IMG/VR virus record: IMGVR_UViG_2706794665_000015
Length of the DNA: 15,331 bases
DNA from: a virus
Taxonomy: Duplodnaviria > Heunggongvirae > Uroviricota > Caudoviricetes
Direction: 5' to 3' (one strand)
Shown here: piece by piece, positions 1,422-12,571 of the stretch
Position numbering within the stretch: position 1 is the first letter of the stretch
How the letters are laid out: every line of letters starts with the position of its first letter
Position numbers and translations under genes: made by a program
The notes under the pieces: generated by a model
What the model saw: only the letters and a program-made list of their open reading frames with translations
Told to the model about the DNA's origin: nothing
Database searches by the model: none

Positions 1422-3893
1422 TTAAAAATCAGCCTGATTTGGGATCAGTTTTTGCCAGATAGCTGAAACGTATTTTGCCTGGTAACGGGCGTCATCAAGT
1501 GCATTATGGCGCTCACCTTCGAATGGAATAGCCGTTCTGGCATCGAAGTCTATGGCTTTCCCCAGCTCAACGATTGTGCGTACATCGCGATCGTTGTAGT
1601 AACGCCACGGGCAGGGGATCCCCTGCCGTTCGTATGAACGGCGCAAAATCGTGTTGTCGAAGTTGGCTCCATTTCCCCAAACCTGAACAAAAAATTCACC
1701 GGAGTTTTCGTCGATAAATTCCCGCAATTGTAACAGTGCATCATCTAACGGGATTTCATCGGTCATAATGGCAGATTGCGCTTCGCGTGATTGCTTAAGC
1801 CACCATTTAATGGTGTCCCGATCAATGACTCCGCCAGCAGTTTCCAGATCGATAGTCTTACTAAATTCCGGTCCCATATCTCCGGTTTGCGGATCGAAAA
1901 ATATTGCACCTATTGAGATGATCGGGGCATCAGGATTTTTTCCCATGGTTTCAAGGTCGATCATTAGATGGTCACACGTCCTGCTGGTGGATGTGATTTC
2001 TTGATGACCGTTCACCTTAATTGAGTGATCTGCCGTCTCGCCAGTTTCATTATCGCTATCGTGATGCTGATTGCCGCCAGTGTTCTCCTTGTGTGGATGT
2101 TCAGCGCCTTCCATTTCCTCCGGATCATCTTCCTGAACTTCAGGCTGATACTCTTCATCGAATGTTTCCTGGTATGTTGCGTCGCCCATTACCGCGCCAC
2201 AATCAGGGCAGTTGCCGCCGCCGGTCTGACCGCAGGCGGTGCAGACTTTTTCCACTTCCTGTTGCGCCACTGATTCAGGCTGTTTCGTTTCTGGCTCGTT
2301 TTGTAACGCATTTGGGCTGTTTTGTTCCGCTTTCTGGTCGTTCTGTTCCGTTTCTTGCTGGTTCTGGTTCACAGAATCGCGGGTCTGGTTCCCCTTAACC
2401 CATTTCGGATCATTCGGGTCGCTAATCCCTTCAACAAATTCACCACGTGATACTGCAAGCAGTTCATCGGCGTCAGGCTGGCTGATATTGGCTGCCTGCA
2501 TAATTTTGTTTACTTCGTCAGCGGTAACTTTTACTGACCCTGGTTGTGCGGTCGTGTCAGATGCACCAGTATTTTGTTGTGAACCTGAGTATGTACCGTT
2601 TTTGCGGGCGAAATATTCTTCTTTCGTGATTTCAGTAGCCCCGGCAGACAGCGCCTTATCCAGACCAGAAAGTTTGTTTGCGCGACCGTATTTTTCGCCA
2701 TCCTTGTCGGTGAAGAGGAAGTAGAACGGCCCCTCACGTTCTACAGATGGTTCGACTTCCACTTTGCATTCGGTTTTTTCGTTGTCCGGAATTGCCGTTT
2801 CCACTGCATCAGTTTCTGGTACTGGCGACGAGAGAGTATCAGTTGCGCTCTGATTTGTTCCTTCATCTTCAAACACGCCCTTTGTAGTCAGGTATTCAGT
2901 AATGTATTTGTTCAGTGCCACAGGGTCTTTGTGAATGTCGATCGGACGTTCACGGACAAGGCCAAAAATAGTCTGGCGGTCGTAGCGAAGGGCATCAGGC
3001 TGTTTGCGCATTGATGCCGAGATACGCTTCCAGTCTTCGCGGTCGTTGTCGATAACTTCATTTTTTGCCCAGCGATGGATGCTGCCGTCAATGTTTCCGG
3101 CATCCACATCACCAGGCCAGAGAGCGTAGGCCAGTTCGTCATCCAGTGTTTTCCATGTCTGCTTGTATTCGCGATGAATGGCAGCAATGACCGGGTTGAT
3201 TTTTCCTGTTGAATTTTCAGTGTGCTGTTGATTGGCTCTGGCGCGGGCGAGATCAACAACAGACGTGTATTTTCCGGCTTCCTTGCGTTCACCTTCGCGA
3301 CGTTTTTTCCAGATGCGCATCTCTGCCTGAATTTCGGGCCATTTGGCACCAGGCTTACATTTATGCTTAACCCACCCGATGGCATGCAGCTTAAGCTCCG
3401 GATACATGGCGTTAACTTCTGGCATTTTCATCAACGCTTCAACGATATGTCCGTCGAATGTTGCCATGTCTTCCTGCAACAGTTCCTGCGCGCTAATCAC
3501 CATATCAACGGTGATGTTTTCACATGTGTCGAACTTAACCATGACAGCGTTCTGTACTTCAGGGGCCAGCTTGTCAAAAGTGACGTTCATCGGATCTGAT
3601 TCAGTCTCAACCGGGACAAAGGAAGCAGACGCCTCATCCCAGCGGTTTTCCTGCATATATTCAGCATCCCAGGAATCTAGGGCAGGGCGGGGTATACCGG
3701 GTTTATCCTCGCAGACAAGAAATTTATAAGCGCAGTCCTGAGCAGCCGGATAATGTTCCAGGAATTGCCAGTGAAATTTTGCGCGGGCGCGACGTTCATC
3801 ACCGGCTTCAATGGCAGTGGCTACAGCGACTGCACCTTCTTCCTTTATTGCCTGTTCGTCCGGAATGGCGGCGCAAATAAAGACTTTACTCAT
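1422..3893 (-). CDS. Prophage exonuclease, 823 aa: N-terminal domain of unknown function, acidic low-complexity linker with a Cys4 ribbon, C-terminal DEDDh (DnaQ-like) 3'-5' exonuclease domain
   Basis: Long ORF with GAGGT about 8 nt upstream of the ATG at 3893. C-terminal residues show Exo I (MIDLETMG) and Exo III (HNALDDARY) motifs of DEDDh exonucleases. Cys4 motif CTACGQTGGGNCPDCG is encoded near 2181-2250. Position between xis and dicB/ydfD matches the exonuclease slot of Qin-like prophages. Confidence 0.85.
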   Translation of the reverse strand: MSKVFICAAIPDEQAIKEEGAVAVATAIEAGDERRARAKFHWQFLEHYPAAQDCAYKFLVCEDKPGIPRPALDSWDAEYMQENRWDEASASFVPVETESDPMNVTFDKLAPEVQNAVMVKFDTCENITVDMVISAQELLQEDMATFDGHIVEALMKMPEVNAMYPELKLHAIGWVKHKCKPGAKWPEIQAEMRIWKKRREGERKEAGKYTSVVDLARARANQQHTENSTGKINPVIAAIHREYKQTWKTLDDELAYALWPGDVDAGNIDGSIHRWAKNEVIDNDREDWKRISASMRKQPDALRYDRQTIFGLVRERPIDIHKDPVALNKYITEYLTTKGVFEDEGTNQSATDTLSSPVPETDAVETAIPDNEKTECKVEVEPSVEREGPFYFLFTDKDGEKYGRANKLSGLDKALSAGATEITKEEYFARKNGTYSGSQQNTGASDTTAQPGSVKVTADEVNKIMQAANISQPDADELLAVSRGEFVEGISDPNDPKWVKGNQTRDSVNQNQQETEQNDQKAEQNSPNALQNEPETKQPESVAQQEVEKVCTACGQTGGGNCPDCGAVMGDATYQETFDEEYQPEVQEDDPEEMEGAEHPHKENTGGNQHHDSDNETGETADHSIKVNGHQEITSTSRTCDHLMIDLETMGKNPDAPIISIGAIFFDPQTGDMGPEFSKTIDLETAGGVIDRDTIKWWLKQSREAQSAIMTDEIPLDDALLQLREFIDENSGEFFVQVWGNGANFDNTILRRSYERQGIPCPWRYYNDRDVRTIVELGKAIDFDARTAIPFEGERHNALDDARYQAKYVSAIWQKLIPNQADF

Positions 3894-3985: not shown

Positions 3986-4177
3986 TTAAAGACCTGCCGG
4001 GATTTCGTTATTATCCTGGTGAATAACTTTATCGACCGGGTAACAGTTACCGGGAATTTTCTGTTCGGTTGCTGCAGTCACACACTCCTGCATTGTCCTG
4101 TGAACACTGACTGCAATATCAACTGGCTCTCCGGAAACAAGAAAAACTGTCAGAACAAGTGCAAATGCTGTATTCAT
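3986..4177 (-). CDS. ydfD: YdfD-like small lysis protein (63 aa, N-terminal signal/TM segment)
   Basis: Start chosen at the internal Met (MNTAFALVLTVFLVSG...) because AAGGA lies 8 nt upstream on the minus strand and its ATG overlaps the dicB stop (ATGA). Hydrophobic N-terminus; length and position downstream of dicB match my recollection of Qin YdfD. The ORF track's longer 81-aa version has no RBS. Confidence 0.65.
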   Translation of the reverse strand: MNTAFALVLTVFLVSGEPVDIAVSVHRTMQECVTAATEQKIPGNCYPVDKVIHQDNNEIPAGL

Positions 4178-4362
4178 TGTGCACATCCTTTTTGTATCGG
4201 ACGTAAACGGGCCAGCATTGAAAGAATGCATATTTTATTTAATAACTCCCGTTCGTGTTTTCTCTTGTTAATGGCATCTTCAGTAAATACAGGGTTACTG
4301 ATAGTGACACCAATTTCAAAACAACCTTCAGACGTATTAACGTTTGGTAATAACGTTTCCAT
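4174..4362 (-). CDS. dicB: DicB cell-division inhibitor (62 aa)
   Basis: Start at the internal Met of the 97-aa track ORF, preceded by GAGGA with a 7-nt spacer. The product METLLPNVNTSEGCFEIGVTISNPVFTEDAINKRKHERELLNKICILSMLARLRPIQKGCAQ closely matches my recollection of E. coli DicB and lies about 175 nt downstream of DicF, as in Qin. Confidence 0.75.
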   Translation of the reverse strand: METLLPNVNTSEGCFEIGVTISNPVFTEDAINKRKHERELLNKICILSMLARLRPIQKGCAQ

Positions 4363-4536
4363 TATCGCGTCCTCAACAATGAATTTTGTGATGCGGTGCC
4401 TGGTGCCTCCAGGTGACGTTAACCAGTTAACAATTAACGCCGGATACAGAGAATCCACCCATAACACTGTTTTTGGTTTTAACTGTTCCGCGTGCGCTGA
4501 GCCGCATTCACCGCATCACAAAATTCACTTTAAAAA

Positions 4537-4589
4537 GGGCGGCAGAGCAGTCACGGAGTAAAACTGATACCGCCAAACGTCACCAGAAA
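4537..4589 (-). ncRNA. dicF: DicF small regulatory RNA (53 nt; known to repress ftsZ and other mRNAs)
   Basis: Reverse complement of 4537-4589 is TTTCTGGTGACGTTTGGCGGTATCAGTTTTACTCCGTGACTGCTCTGCCGCCC, identical to the DicF sequence as I recall it, followed on the minus strand by TTTTT (plus 4532-4536). Confidence 0.85.
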
Positions 4590-4920
4590 ATTGATAACAG
4601 AGGGCGTTGCAGCGGGGTTGTCGCTTAAGCGTATGGTCAACCTGACAACCCGGTGTCCTCAACGGGGAAGGAATAACCCCGCCATACTTACCGCCGCGCC
4701 ATTTCGCGGAGTGCCACAACCGGAAGCGCACGGTCGAACTAAATTTAACGACACCGTACAGAGAGACCAATTTCGCCGTGCGCTTTCGCGTTATGCCCTG
4801 ACTTTTCAGGGACATATCCTTTCAGTAAACTGTCAGTGCCGGATGTTCACCCGTGTCCGGCGCACGCACTCCACCTGACCCGTGGAGAACTCCTTAATTA
4901 CCAACCCTCAGGAGGGTGAA

Positions 4921-5199
4921 ATGGATAAAAAGCAAATTGAGGCCCTGCAATCTATTATTGAAAAACAAGATGAAGCTATCAGGATTCTTTCATATCGCAC
5001 TGATATGATACTAAATATGCTTTCTGCATTAACGGCTGCGCTTGGTGGTACAAAAACAAACGTATACCGCGAAGTTGTTATTCAACAGATAGATAAATTT
5101 GAAAAAACCATACCAGGTATTAATGCTCATCTTGCAGAACAAGAGAAAGACCATGCTCTTATGGCAATTTCTTCAGTAGCTCTCCCGAAAGTTGAGTAG
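4921..5199 (+). CDS. Hypothetical 92-aa protein, predicted helical/coiled-coil, A+T-rich; encoded antisense to the surrounding leftward operon
   Basis: ATG at 4921 preceded by GGAGGG (4911-4916). Clean ORF with no competing minus-strand ORF across it. Visibly lower GC than flanks. Its 3' end overlaps the 3' end of the convergent 133-aa gene by 41 bp. Confidence 0.6.
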   Translation: MDKKQIEALQSIIEKQDEAIRILSYRTDMILNMLSALTAALGGTKTNVYREVVIQQIDKFEKTIPGINAHLAEQEKDHALMAISSVALPKVE

Positions 5200-5560
5200 T
5201 TTTAATTGTTGTTTTGAAATAATCACTGCTTTCACATTTGAGTGATTTCATGGCAATCCAAATGCGGGCCTCTGTGCCTGCATTTGGTTCCAGTTGCTGT
5301 AGACGTTTTGCGTCTTCCAAAAGTAAGGCGATAATGTGTTTCAGCTTCTCATCATTTGCTTGATTCTTGTTTTCAGGCGAATTCTGTCCGCCGAATAGGC
5401 GCTTCTCTTCATACAGACCTATAAAGGCACGACGCACGTTACCGGATATAGTATCGATGGTTTCTTTTTCTACGGTACTCAGGTCAAGAGTCGCCAGTTG
5501 AGAGCGAACCACATTCGATGCCATTTCCTGGAATGGTACTGGTAAATCTTTAAATTCCAT
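5159..5560 (-). CDS. Hypothetical protein (about 133 aa), second gene of the DicA-repressed leftward operon
   Basis: ORF track gives 5159..5572 (137 aa); I prefer the Met at 5560 because GAGG lies 6 nt upstream, whereas the 5572 ATG has no RBS but overlaps the upstream stop (TGATG). Occupies the position of ydfB/ydfC in Qin; identity not verifiable from memory. Confidence 0.55.
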   Translation of the reverse strand: MEFKDLPVPFQEMASNVVRSQLATLDLSTVEKETIDTISGNVRRAFIGLYEEKRLFGGQNSPENKNQANDEKLKHIIALLLEDAKRLQQLEPNAGTEARIWIAMKSLKCESSDYFKTTIKTTQLSGELLKKLP

Positions 5561-5571
5561 CGTCAACCTCA

Positions 5572-5724
5572 TCAGTCAGTGTTTCTGGTTAACCAGCGAC
5601 GCGCGCCAGCTTCAGTTTTAAACGTTTTGCTTCTGGTATACGTCATCGCGGTGAACGTACCGTCCTGGTTGGGGAACACGCCACATACCAGAGATTCGCT
5701 GTTGCCAAGATCGATAGTATCCAT
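5572..5724 (-). CDS. Small hypothetical protein (50 aa), first gene of the leftward early operon (YdfA-like position)
   Basis: The track ORF 5572..5829 starts at a TTG with no RBS, and its first 35 codons coincide with promoter and operator sequence. The first ATG (5724) is preceded by GAGGT with a 4-5 nt spacer. Confidence 0.5.
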   Translation of the reverse strand: MDTIDLGNSESLVCGVFPNQDGTFTAMTYTRSKTFKTEAGARRWLTRNTD

Positions 5725-5800
5725 GCTGACCTCATTACCCCTTAACGCCGGGTAGCGGAACTGTTTGCTGAGAACACCGTGCGGTGTCTTGATGGGTGGT

Positions 5801-5829
5801 AATTTAGTTTTCTCATGAATGTTGGTCAA
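5801..5829 (-). promoter_or_regulatory. Putative sigma70 promoter of the leftward early (dicB) operon: -35 TTGACC, 17-bp spacer, -10 TAAATT on the minus strand
   Basis: Minus-strand hexamers at plus 5829-5824 and 5806-5801, flanked and overlapped by two copies of the 14-bp operator motif; lies between the dicA stop and the first operon gene. Confidence 0.45.
5803..5816 (-). promoter_or_regulatory. Operator-like 14-bp palindromic motif copy (minus-strand ATGAGAAAACTAAA) overlapping the -10 of the leftward promoter
   Basis: 13/14 match to the motif at 6372-6385; inverted relative to the copy at 5839-5852. Confidence 0.45.
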
Positions 5830-5913: not shown

Positions 5914-6321
5914 TTACTGATGTTTGTTACGTTTGCGAGCTTCTAGTAGCTCGGTGAATAGGCGATTAAAATTCTCAACGCGGGCACGGAGTTCGCTGAT
6001 TTGTGCTTGCTGCTCTGATTTTGGAAGTGCGCGATACAATCGCAACATCTCCAACTCATCTTCCGATAAGTCTAAGGCGCTGTTGAGTGCTACTGGTGGA
6101 TCTGGTGTTTTATCCTCGTCACCAAACAGTATCCAAGTTGGTGAACATTGCAATACCTCAGCCAGGCGATGCAAATTTTGCCCGCGCGGGGCTGTATGGT
6201 CGCTTTCCCATAGTGAAATTGATGAGCCAGATACGCCAGCGGCTTTGCTTAAATCGTTTTGACTTAAACCAACCTGTTTGCGTCTTTCTCTAATTCGTTG
6301 ACCTAAAGTTTTCTCGTTCAT
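5914..6321 (-). CDS. dicA: DicA-like prophage repressor (HTH XRE family, 135 aa, no peptidase domain)
   Basis: N-terminal HTH (QRIRERRKQVGLSQNDLSKAAGVSGSSISLWE) and overall similarity to E. coli DicA as recalled (…LQCSPTWILFGDEDK…RARVENFNRLFTELL); divergent from a Cro-like gene. Confidence 0.85.
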   Translation of the reverse strand: MNEKTLGQRIRERRKQVGLSQNDLSKAAGVSGSSISLWESDHTAPRGQNLHRLAEVLQCSPTWILFGDEDKTPDPPVALNSALDLSEDELEMLRLYRALPKSEQQAQISELRARVENFNRLFTELLEARKRNKHQ

Positions 6322-8878: not shown

Positions 8879-9153
8879 NNNNNNNNNNNNNNNNNNNNNN
8901 NNNNNNNNNNNNNNNNNNNNNNNNNNNNNNNNNNNNNNNNNNNNNNNNNNNNNNNNNNNNNNNNNNNNNNNNNNNNNNNNNNNNNNNNNNNNNNNNNNNN
9001 NNNNNNNNNNNNNNNNNNNNNNNNNNNNNNNNNNNNNNNNNNNNNNNNNNNNNNNNNNNNNNNNNNNNNNNNNNNNNNNNNNNNNNNNNNNNNNNNNNNN
9101 NNNNNNNNNNNNNNNNNNNNNNNNNNNNNNNNNNNNNNNNNNNNNNNNNNNNN
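8879..9153. other. Run of 275 N (assembly gap or masked sequence)
   Basis: Uninterrupted N characters; true length and content unknown. Confidence 1.
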
Positions 9154-10659: not shown

Positions 10660-10910
10660 NNNNNNNNNNNNNNNNNNNNNNNNNNNNNNNNNNNNNNNNN
10701 NNNNNNNNNNNNNNNNNNNNNNNNNNNNNNNNNNNNNNNNNNNNNNNNNNNNNNNNNNNNNNNNNNNNNNNNNNNNNNNNNNNNNNNNNNNNNNNNNNNN
10801 NNNNNNNNNNNNNNNNNNNNNNNNNNNNNNNNNNNNNNNNNNNNNNNNNNNNNNNNNNNNNNNNNNNNNNNNNNNNNNNNNNNNNNNNNNNNNNNNNNNN
10901 NNNNNNNNNN
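10660..10910. other. Run of 251 N (assembly gap or masked sequence)
   Basis: Uninterrupted N characters. Confidence 1.
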
Positions 10911-12240: not shown

Positions 12241-12359
12241 AACTGCGGGTGCTTGAGGCTATCTGTCTCAGGCATGAACACCAAAAGGCAGATAGAGAAA
12301 AGCCCCAGTTAACATTACGCGTCCTGCAAGACGCTTAACATTAATCTGAGGCCATATCT

Positions 12360-12419
12360 ATGCGACACATAGAGATTAGCCTCTTACGGACCGAAAGGTC
12401 AAGGAGAAGCAGGCTATGA
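12360..12419 (+). CDS. Short upstream ORF (19 codons) ending in ATGA overlap with hok; mok-like coupling element
   Basis: ATG at 12360 with GAGG upstream; its TGA (12417-12419) overlaps the hok ATG (12416-12418). Confidence 0.3.
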   Translation: MRHIEISLLRTERSRRSRL

Positions 12420-12571
12420 AGCAGCAAAAGGCGATGTTAATCGCCCTGATCGTCATCTGTTTAACCGTCATAGTGACGGCACTGGTAACGAGGAAAGACC
12501 TCTGCGAGGTACGAATCCGAACCGGCCAGACGGAGGTCGCTGTCTTCACAGCTTACGAACCTGAGGAGTAA
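12416..12571 (+). CDS. hokD: Hok-family type I toxin (HokD/RelF-like), 51 aa
   Basis: Product MKQQKAMLIALIVICLTVIVTALVTRKDLCEVRIRTGQTEVAVFTAYEPEE has the Hok signature (single TM helix then RKDLCE…); GGAG 7 nt upstream. Coordinates may be off by 1 (hand-indexed). Confidence 0.85.
   Translation: MKQQKAMLIALIVICLTVIVTALVTRKDLCEVRIRTGQTEVAVFTAYEPEE

Follow-up and report, generated by a model that had tools for sequence, protein, structure and literature searches.

A small antisense gene at a position corresponding by alignment to sieB of Rac, and the leader it shares with other small reading frames in Escherichia coli prophages

A 92-codon gene opposite to the early-left operon

IMG/VR record IMGVR_UViG_2706794665_000015 (Caudoviricetes) is a 15,331-nucleotide (nt) stretch of DNA, here called the window, that represents the early region of a Qin/Rac-type lambdoid prophage of Escherichia coli; in the closest complete genomes this prophage is integrated beside ompW. 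Its leftward early operon is read from the minus strand, and within it lies a plus-strand gene of 92 codons, which is the subject of this study (Table 1). An earlier note on this DNA had pointed to the open reading frame (ORF), to a strong ribosome-binding site and to a 41-bp overlap with the gene for a protein of 133 amino acids (aa) on the other strand, and we found all three to be present. The Shine-Dalgarno (SD) sequence, AGGAGG at 4910-4915, is strong and stands at the ideal distance of 5 nt 5' of the ATG at 4921. The ORF was also described as A+T-rich, which comparison with its flanks bore out: its G+C content is 36.9% (25.8% at third codon positions), against 54.8% for the left flank (4589-4920), 42.4% for the 133-aa gene and 48.5% for the window. 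Since dicB is equally A+T-rich (35.9% G+C), the low G+C is real and not unique in the operon.

The protein is not new to the databases, where it is already annotated as hypothetical. It is identical to RefSeq 'hypothetical protein' WP_000358771.1 of strains E2348/69 and 042, occurs unchanged on at least 1000 public contigs, always under the name hypothetical, and matches PHROG 18692 over its full length (E = 5.9e-63; residues 1-92 against profile positions 1-92). Neither the PHROG nor the RefSeq entry carries functional information, and the remote members described below were joined to the family in the present analysis. Relative to homologues of 71-73% identity from Salmonella and an unassigned contig, most substitutions are at the third position of the codon (first/second/third, 19/9/29, 18/9/27 and 9/0/25), and the ratio of nonsynonymous to synonymous substitution rates (dN/dS) is 0.08-0.25. 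Over codons 1-60, frame +1 alone was free of stops and had the lowest dN/dS (0.05-0.15) among all frames scored. The 92-codon ORF encodes a protein under purifying selection; conservation as a coding sequence in relatives, the lack of which the earlier note had named as a refutation, was seen both in the single open frame and in the synonymous bias.

The opposing view is that the ORF is spurious, being the antisense of an untranslated stretch of the operon. Literature searches that gave no experimental evidence of expression, the narrow taxonomic range of the family and the existence of a few truncated or frameshifted copies would suit this view. It is contradicted by the frame specificity of the synonymous substitutions, by the strength and ideal spacing of the SD, by a frame that is unbroken in homologues from E. 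coli, Salmonella and Klebsiella at 33-73% identity, by the recurrence of the exact protein on those 1000 or more contigs and by a confident, compact and helical AlphaFold2 model obtained with 13 homologues. The substitution tests effectively refute it, and we regard it as hardly credible.

The AlphaFold2 model, built from a 13-sequence alignment, has a predicted local distance difference test score (pLDDT) of 82 and a predicted template modelling score of 0.66, with helices at residues 3-43, 46-59 and 69-85. Averaged over 19 residues, Kyte-Doolittle hydropathy reaches at most 0.93, the protein has 11 lysines and arginines against 13 aspartates and glutamates, and neither a transmembrane segment nor a signal peptide-like N-terminus was found. 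The product is thus predicted to be a soluble, three-helix, all-alpha protein. No PADLOC defence profile matched it, and the 133-aa neighbour gave only a chance-level match to HerA (E = 0.022). When the 13 family members were compared with Pfam, only scattered chance matches were obtained, and a search of solved structures by sequence yielded nothing (best E = 0.88).

Alignment with related prophages, which the earlier note had proposed, showed that the gene belongs to a cassette that is either present or absent. K-12 Qin is 94.6% identical to window positions 4300-4906 and then diverges, 15 bp before the ATG; it retains the upstream sequence and lacks the gene, in place of which it has ydfC, ending 20 bp past the breakpoint at 4906. 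K-12 Rac shares both flanks, with 80% identity to window positions 4378-4542 and 86% identity to 5591-5715. The order of genes in Rac (locus L240, 5406-6312) is racR, ydaG and ydaF (DUF1391) on the minus strand, sieB on the plus strand, the small RNA (sRNA) kilS and kilR on the minus strand, and then recE through int; sieB (b1353) overlaps the 3' end of ydaF by 4 bp. Because Rac holds a plus-strand sieB, a known gene for superinfection exclusion, between homologous flanks, the 92-aa gene sits, as judged from these alignments, in the sieB position of the sister prophage and in the same orientation.

The resemblance to sieB, as it is found in Rac (b1353), P22 and lambda, is one of layout: both genes are antisense in an early-left operon, between a DUF1391 gene and an sRNA with a cell-division inhibitor. 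The products differ, as SieB is a protein of 162 aa with hydrophobic membrane segments and the 92-aa protein is soluble and dissimilar in sequence. No SieB family in Pfam matched it at E <= 1, and BLASTP against Rac SieB gave no alignment at E <= 100. A SieB-like mechanism is unlikely for the 92-aa protein, because it has neither similarity to SieB nor a membrane segment. The earlier suggestion of superinfection exclusion or anti-phage defence gained no support from similarity to SieB, from a membrane segment or from a defence-system profile.

Table 1. Features of the early region, in window coordinates
Feature	Position	Strand	Details
92-codon gene	4921-5199	plus	ATG 4921-4923, TAG 5197-5199; within mechanical ORF 4882-5199
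Predicted sigma-70-type promoter of the cassette	4803-4831	plus	-35 TTTTCA 4803-4808, 17-bp spacer, -10 TAAACT 4826-4831; weight matrix
Leader hairpin 1 (predicted)	4836-4863	plus	GUGCCGGAUG ... UGUCCGGCGCAC; minimum-free-energy fold and RNAalifold consensus, 97% of cells paired
Leader hairpin 2 (predicted)	4869-4887	plus	CUCCAC ... GUGGAG; RNAalifold, compensatory stem variants
Anti-SD:SD helix (predicted)	4890-4914	plus	CUCCU 4890-4894 with AGGAG 4910-4914; RNAalifold, 100% of cells paired
Convergent overlap	5159-5199		3' ends of the 92-aa and 133-aa genes, 41 bp
Partner gene	5159-5560	minus	133 aa, WP_001339605.1; early-left operon; 137 aa if upstream ATG at 5572
DUF1391/ydfA-like gene	5572 to ~5724	minus	
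Sigma-70-like early-left promoter	5829-5801	minus	consensus scan
Repressor gene	5914-6321	minus	product 56% identical to K-12 DicA; cro/YdaS-like gene next, plus strand
Structured noncoding element	4596-4800	minus	~200 nt, G+C-rich; between cassette and DicF
DicF sRNA	4537-4588	minus	Rfam RF00039, 76.7 bits; left boundary of the slot
dicB	4174-4362	minus	preceded in window coordinates by a DUF1482/ydfD-like gene
Exonuclease gene	1422-3893	minus	823 aa
int	1-1131	minus	followed by xis

One leader and several small reading frames

Loci of E. coli, of Salmonella lambdoid prophages and of P2-like prophages share a conserved stretch of approximately 85 nt preceding the ATG; the adjoining 40-80 nt on its upstream side are variable. 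When window positions 4880-5220 were compared with 5426 complete E. coli genomes, the whole stretch was found in 125 and its first 41-51 nt alone in about 720 more. In total, 848 genomes (about 16%) matched these first 41-51 nt, which form the 3' part of the leader, and 125 had the 92-codon ORF; in the genomes that matched the 3' part of the leader only, a different annotated plus-strand gene follows.

Furthermore, a scan of IMG/VR with the 21 nt that end at the ribosome-binding site gave 126 placements. The plus-strand ORF that follows has 92 aa in about 42 of these loci, where it overlaps the minus-strand gene by 41 bp; elsewhere it has 77 aa (44 loci, 23-bp overlap), 91 aa (21 loci, 23 or 32 bp), 73 aa (15 loci, 11 bp) or 63 aa (four loci, 23 bp). 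All five begin at the same ATG position, converge on the minus-strand gene and overlap its 3' end. Of the other four products, the 91-aa protein is remotely homologous to the 92-aa one (28% identity, E = 9e-6), and the 77-, 73- and 63-aa proteins are unrelated to the latter in sequence; these three had no Pfam match and correspond to PHROGs 10348, 7249 and 2605, all without an assigned function. The viable phage PhiR5_2 (PV340546.1; L239, 1665-1874, plus strand) also has an ORF of the 63-aa type behind the same leader, here of 69 aa and absent from the GenBank annotation. It overlaps the 3' end of its neighbour by 32 bp; an N-dependent early-left operon gene lies on one side of it and a DicF-like hairpin, followed by kil, on the other. 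In E. coli prophages, one leader with its ribosome-binding site thus precedes at least five different small ORFs.

In an alignment of 10 sequences, the leader is predicted to form two hairpins followed by a helix between the SD and an upstream complementary (anti-SD) segment (Table 1). Hairpin 1 contains U-G and G-U pairs that would be A-C mismatches on the opposite strand, and in the distant locus L236 it reads GCCGGG/CCCGGC instead of GCCGGA/TCCGGC. The stem of hairpin 2 varies as CCCGAC/GUCGGG (L136/L137), CCCAAC/GUUGGG (L238) and CACACG/CGUGUG (L009). The anti-SD:SD helix is paired in all 10 sequences, with a compensatory change from A-U to U-A (CUCCU/AGGAG in six, CUCCA/UGGAG in four), and by this prediction it pairs with and so sequesters the ribosome-binding site, a trait of translational leaders of the riboregulator or RNA-thermometer type; in the single-sequence fold the SD is also placed in a local hairpin. 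Over the 10 sequences 95% of cells were paired, compared with 35-49% in slid controls, and the covariation score was 0.172 compared with 0.083 for shuffles, none of 500 shuffles reaching the observed value. Relative to shuffled sequence, folding was stronger on the plus strand (z = -2.76) than on the minus strand (z = -0.66), and the G-U pairs likewise favour the plus strand. No Rfam family matched the leader. The leader of Rac sieB differs in sequence from the one described here and is closer to those of the most distant family members, L140 and L237; a CCACC...GGTGG hairpin is found in the Rac sieB leader as in these two.

A weight-matrix scan placed the best promoter site of the 90 nt upstream at the position listed in Table 1, with a predicted start of transcription at about 4836-4839. 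In six divergent loci the -10 element of the best or second-best site (TAAACT, TAAGCT, TAAAAT, TATGCC, TATATC and TATTAT) ends 5-8 nt before hairpin 1, in flanking sequence that is otherwise poorly conserved. Because a -10-like hexamer stands at this distance in all six, this placement suggests that transcription begins at the foot of hairpin 1, and hairpin 1 probably lies at the 5' end of the mRNA. Near the predicted promoter, visual inspection of the sequence showed no LexA box and no lambda-CII-type site (TTGC-N6-TTGC). No operator shared with the immunity region emerged either: the sole near-repeat matches at 12 of 14 nt, between 4893-4906 and the opposite strand of 5794-5807. It relates the anti-SD/SD loop (CTTAATTACCAACC) to the reverse complement at the -10 region of the early-left promoter, and, with about 0.2 such matches expected by chance, it is probably a coincidence. 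At the other end of the cassette, a 12-bp palindrome at 5258-5287 (CCAAATGCGGGC / GCCTGCATTTGG) lies within the coding region for the C-terminal module of the partner and is conserved in the Salmonella homologues; it has no U-tract, and it might mark the end of the plus-strand transcript.

Family members, the convergent partner and the surrounding operon

Profile searches recovered 15 family proteins from 1.84 billion representative proteins and 47 family clusters from a collection of 5.8 billion clusters. All named members come from Enterobacteriaceae (E. coli, Salmonella enterica, S. bongori and Klebsiella oxytoca), are annotated as hypothetical and lack a Pfam domain; the INPHARED phage collection, searched by tblastn, contained no homologue of the 92-aa protein. 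The prophages that carry members of 42-49% identity have int, C and cox arranged as in P2; the family gene immediately follows cox or a CII-like gene, on the opposite strand, and overlaps its neighbour by 41 bp, by 21 bp or not at all. Two such Salmonella prophages contain a C4-type antisense RNA (RF01695, about 77 bits; L136 4026-4113 and L138 3873-3960, minus strand) upstream of a 'Derepression' (PF25738) gene, that is, a P1-like immI module within a P2-like early region. Members of 33-41% identity are convergent to an S24-type cI gene and lie in the interval from there to the first early-left gene, which is where lambda carries rexAB. At one of these loci (L140, 5628-8268, minus strand) the S24-type cI gene is followed by genes for a HipA-like kinase and a DUF3037 protein in the place of rexAB, and the family member is convergent just beyond them. 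One Klebsiella copy adjoins an integrase. The constant feature of the family is an orientation antisense to the early lytic operon, near the immunity genes.

Such positions could mean that the protein is itself a component of the lysis-lysogeny circuit, a small modulator of a repressor, an antirepressor or a CII-like protein, and not an accessory gene. For every member the immunity region is no more than one to three genes away: in the window the gene comes after ydfA and the partner, in P2-like prophages directly after cox or a CII-like gene, and in other lambdoid prophages between the S24-type cI gene (or a cI operon with the HipA-like and DUF3037 genes) and the first early-left gene. Small helical proteins, moreover, often regulate by binding other proteins. 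Close relatives, however, dispense with the gene: Qin lacks it, Rac has sieB instead, and in 85% of the E. coli prophages that bear the leader a different ORF follows. Of the four other alleles at this position, three are unrelated to the 92-aa protein, and the repressors that co-occur with the family are of several types (DicA-like, S24-type cI and P2 C-like), which argues against a specific partner in the switch. We consider this explanation quite unlikely.

The 41-bp overlap between the convergent 3' ends is kept in the Salmonella lambdoid loci L003, L004 and L009. It is also found in the P2-like loci L136, L137 and L238, where the partner is a different protein, and is reduced to 21 bp in L138. 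The tails of these partners are alike (..TQLSGELLKKLP, ..THLSEALLKKCT, ..SRISEELLIQCN), since each is translated from the strand complementary to the conserved end of the plus-strand ORF. The overlap is thus a property of the plus-strand cassette, into which different upstream genes run.

An overlap of this kind raises the question of whether the unit serves mainly through its antisense RNA, or through being transcribed at all, with the protein secondary. The RNA could lower the mRNA of the partner, as lambda oop does with that of cII, or limit read-through into dicF-dicB-ydfD, whose products inhibit cell division (PMC5069750) or, according to annotation, lyse the cell. The likeness to oop lies in a convergent unit whose 3' end runs over the 3' end of an early-operon gene, which in the P2-like relatives is a CII-like regulator, and the difference is that oop is a 77-nt noncoding RNA and the 92-codon unit encodes a conserved protein. 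In keeping with a role of the RNA, the promoter-leader is far more conserved than the sequence behind it, where at least five ORFs alternate and three of these bear no relation to the 92-aa protein. Phages of different types, some with CII-like partners, also preserve the convergent 3' overlap. Clear purifying selection on a protein that persists at 33-47% identity across distant prophages is nevertheless unexpected for a by-product, and five members (L235, L236, L237, L140 and L134) overlap no gene. A role of the RNA and a role of the protein do not exclude one another; as the main function, we judge the former unlikely.

The partner itself is composite. Its N-terminal part of about 55 residues is conserved and its C-terminal module is exchangeable, being of type A in the window (LKHIIALLLEDAKRLQQLEPNAGTEARIWIA); phrog_1363 was among the matches. 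Two subtypes of the N-terminal part exist (MEFKDLPVPFQEMASN.. and MEFKDLPKEIQTIAATTLGD..), and the C-terminal modules attached to them are of at least four kinds. In Salmonella the type-A module is a stand-alone gene of 71 aa. Phages of Aeromonas, Cronobacter, Serratia, Shigella and Pectobacterium have it too, as seen in a collection that gave no match to the 92-aa protein.

We had at first favoured the idea that the 92-aa protein and this module form a cognate pair, comparable to toxin and immunity or effector and inhibitor (as in colicins, whose immunity genes lie in opposite orientation), and are swapped as a single polymorphic unit; it was downgraded when their co-occurrence proved not to be strict. 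The variable segment extends from the ATG of the plus-strand ORF to about residue 55 of the partner, so that both vary together. In both E. coli and Salmonella the type-A ORF adjoins the type-A module and overlaps it by 41 bp, also when this module is the separate 71-aa gene, and the 91-aa allele, itself a remote homologue, adjoins a different module. Yet the linkage is loose: one module is found with both 91- and 73-aa ORFs and another with both 77- and 63-aa ORFs, the P2-like loci have an unrelated CII-like helix-turn-helix protein or no overlapping partner, and the type-A module is carried by phages of the collection that gave no 92-aa match. Adjoining DNA would also diverge jointly if the two products never interacted. 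A RelB-like NCBIfam match was not significant (E = 0.011, 15.9 bits against a cut-off of 50). We now hold a cognate pair to be very improbable.

The operon around the cassette had been called a DicA-repressed leftward operon. The label is a reasonable one by homology: a DicA-like repressor (56% identity) and a sigma-70-like site are both found, and that the one acts on the other would follow from their homology to the known system. Between the cassette and DicF lies the structured noncoding element of Table 1, which is highly conserved in K-12 Qin, in viable lambdoid phages (Evi, Tritos, mEp460 and the PPompW phages) and in P2-like Salmonella prophages, the last of which have a short hairpin with a T-run after it instead of DicF. 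It had no Rfam match. We considered it as a long 5' leader of the 92-aa gene and rejected this, as the wobble-type variation (GC to GU) favours the minus strand. Because of this variation, the element probably belongs to the early-left transcript, where it may perhaps serve as a scaffold for sRNA processing. RefSeq has a 64-aa 'hypothetical protein', WP_014639149.1, annotated over the element in strain 042 (L002, 2742-2936), and the matching 96-aa ORF of the window (4525-4815, minus strand) overlaps DicF and has no family match; WP_014639149.1 is probably a spurious call on a noncoding RNA region.

Three further observations concern other parts of the window. Across the dicF-dicB spacer and into the start of dicB (4330-4539, minus strand) there is an Rfam match to STnc100 that stays below threshold, at 37.7 bits against a gathering score of 47. 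In the late part of the prophage, positions 12247-12571 (plus strand) are a hok/sok-type type I toxin-antitoxin locus, with the sok antitoxin RNA (RF01794, 106.7 bits) beside a 51-aa Hok-like ORF at 12416-12571 (MKQQKAMLIALIVICLTVIVTALVTRKDLCEV...). Runs of N at 8879-9153 and 10660-10910, masked or unresolved, break ORFs in the replication and late-early region.

Proposed working of the cassette

With confidence evenly divided, we propose that the 92-aa gene is the cargo of a self-contained cassette of about 400 bp in the sieB position, which is probably expressed in the lysogen and is likely gated by convergent early transcription and by the leader. The cassette would comprise a weak promoter, the 85-nt structured leader, the gene and about 25 nt beyond it, placed antisense in a repressed early-left operon. 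In the lysogen, where the repressor keeps the early-left promoter off, the cassette's own promoter would fire, with a start at about 4837, and the protein would be made, the SD-pairing leader setting its translation low or making it conditional. Upon induction or infection, a strong leftward transcript would meet the cassette head-on and be fully complementary to its mRNA. Both transcriptional interference and RNA-RNA pairing would then silence the 92-aa gene, in the way that the P22 pL transcript acts on sieB. Conversely, transcription of the cassette may damp leaky read-through into dicF-dicB; the earlier note had suggested such interference, which the geometry makes plausible. The product most likely binds and modulates another protein, of the phage, the host or a competing element, and would not act in a SieB-like manner at the membrane; binding to a protein is likely because the product is small, soluble and helical. 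The most likely class of function is an accessory role in phage-phage or phage-host conflict.

Convergent promoters that interfere with each other have a precedent in coliphage 186. The gene sieB is expressed from the prophage, and the RNA sas is derived from the early-left (pL) transcript. In P22 sas acts as a cis-antisense RNA that switches the translation of sieB, and in Salmonella prophages antisense moron loci are transcribed from their own promoters (PMC12197685, PMC7067206). The P22 sieB/sas pair thus follows the same regulatory logic as the one proposed here. The 92-aa gene is also like morons of the Hendrix type, such as STMMW_20121 of ST64B (PMC7067206), in its patchy presence, its distinct composition, its own promoter (here a predicted one) and its orientation against a lytic operon. 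Unlike them, it has a promoter-leader common to several unrelated cargos, so that the slot is conserved and the cargo is swapped, and no terminator is evident. The earlier note had read the gene as a moron expressed in the lysogen. Much of this stands, as the gene is real, lies on the opposite strand, is present or absent among relatives, is A+T-rich and has a precedent in Rac sieB; expression in the lysogen would depend on a promoter that is predicted only.

Several results weigh against the proposal. Our literature searches found no transcript, transcription-start or proteomic evidence for the 92-codon gene, and a slot shared with sieB does not establish a shared function. The predicted promoter is weak, with 8 of 12 consensus matches, and was missed by the standard consensus scan; a standard scan likewise found no intrinsic terminator 3' of the ORF on the plus strand. 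The covariation in the leader amounts to about six independent lineages and three covarying pairs, and the number of pairs changed on both sides does not exceed that of shuffles (128 of 500 reach it). No significant Pfam, NCBIfam or PADLOC family was found for the protein, and Foldseek with the pLDDT-82 model gave no significant fold relative (best E = 2.2 in the PDB and 0.27 in BFVD); for want of a profile match or fold relative, the functional class is taken from position alone.

A bolder extension of the proposal, which we regard as speculative and somewhat unlikely, is that the promoter and leader (4803-4920) constitute an 'expression socket' placed antisense in the early operons of lambdoid and P2-like enterobacterial prophages, to which at least five cargos are joined exactly at the start codon. 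The socket would adjoin a conserved scaffold for a DicF-type sRNA, and its cargos would be the 92-aa family, the remote 91-aa relative and the three unrelated families. They would be lysogen-specific factors in phage-phage or phage-host conflict, cytoplasmic alternatives to SieB, switched by head-on transcription together with an SD-sequestering riboregulator, and the slot would be an unrecognised hotspot of small exclusion or defence genes.

Among the main sources of phage resistance and host traits are prophage genes active in the lysogen, most known examples of which lie at a few recognised hotspots. The equivalence of the slot with that of sieB, the leader shared by swappable cargos, and the wider family with its contexts appear to be undescribed in the literature searched. 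These findings present the sieB position of Rac/Qin-type prophages as a polymorphic slot in which one conserved, predicted promoter and folded leader would serve several small proteins, and the 92-aa family as one that has moved to P2-like and cI(S24)-type prophages as well, where it again lies antisense beside the immunity genes. The slot yields a short list of small candidates for exclusion or defence and a compact leader as a candidate translational switch. With the toxic dicF-dicB module beside it, the locus would offer a natural case for how convergent transcription may make a gene lysogen-specific.

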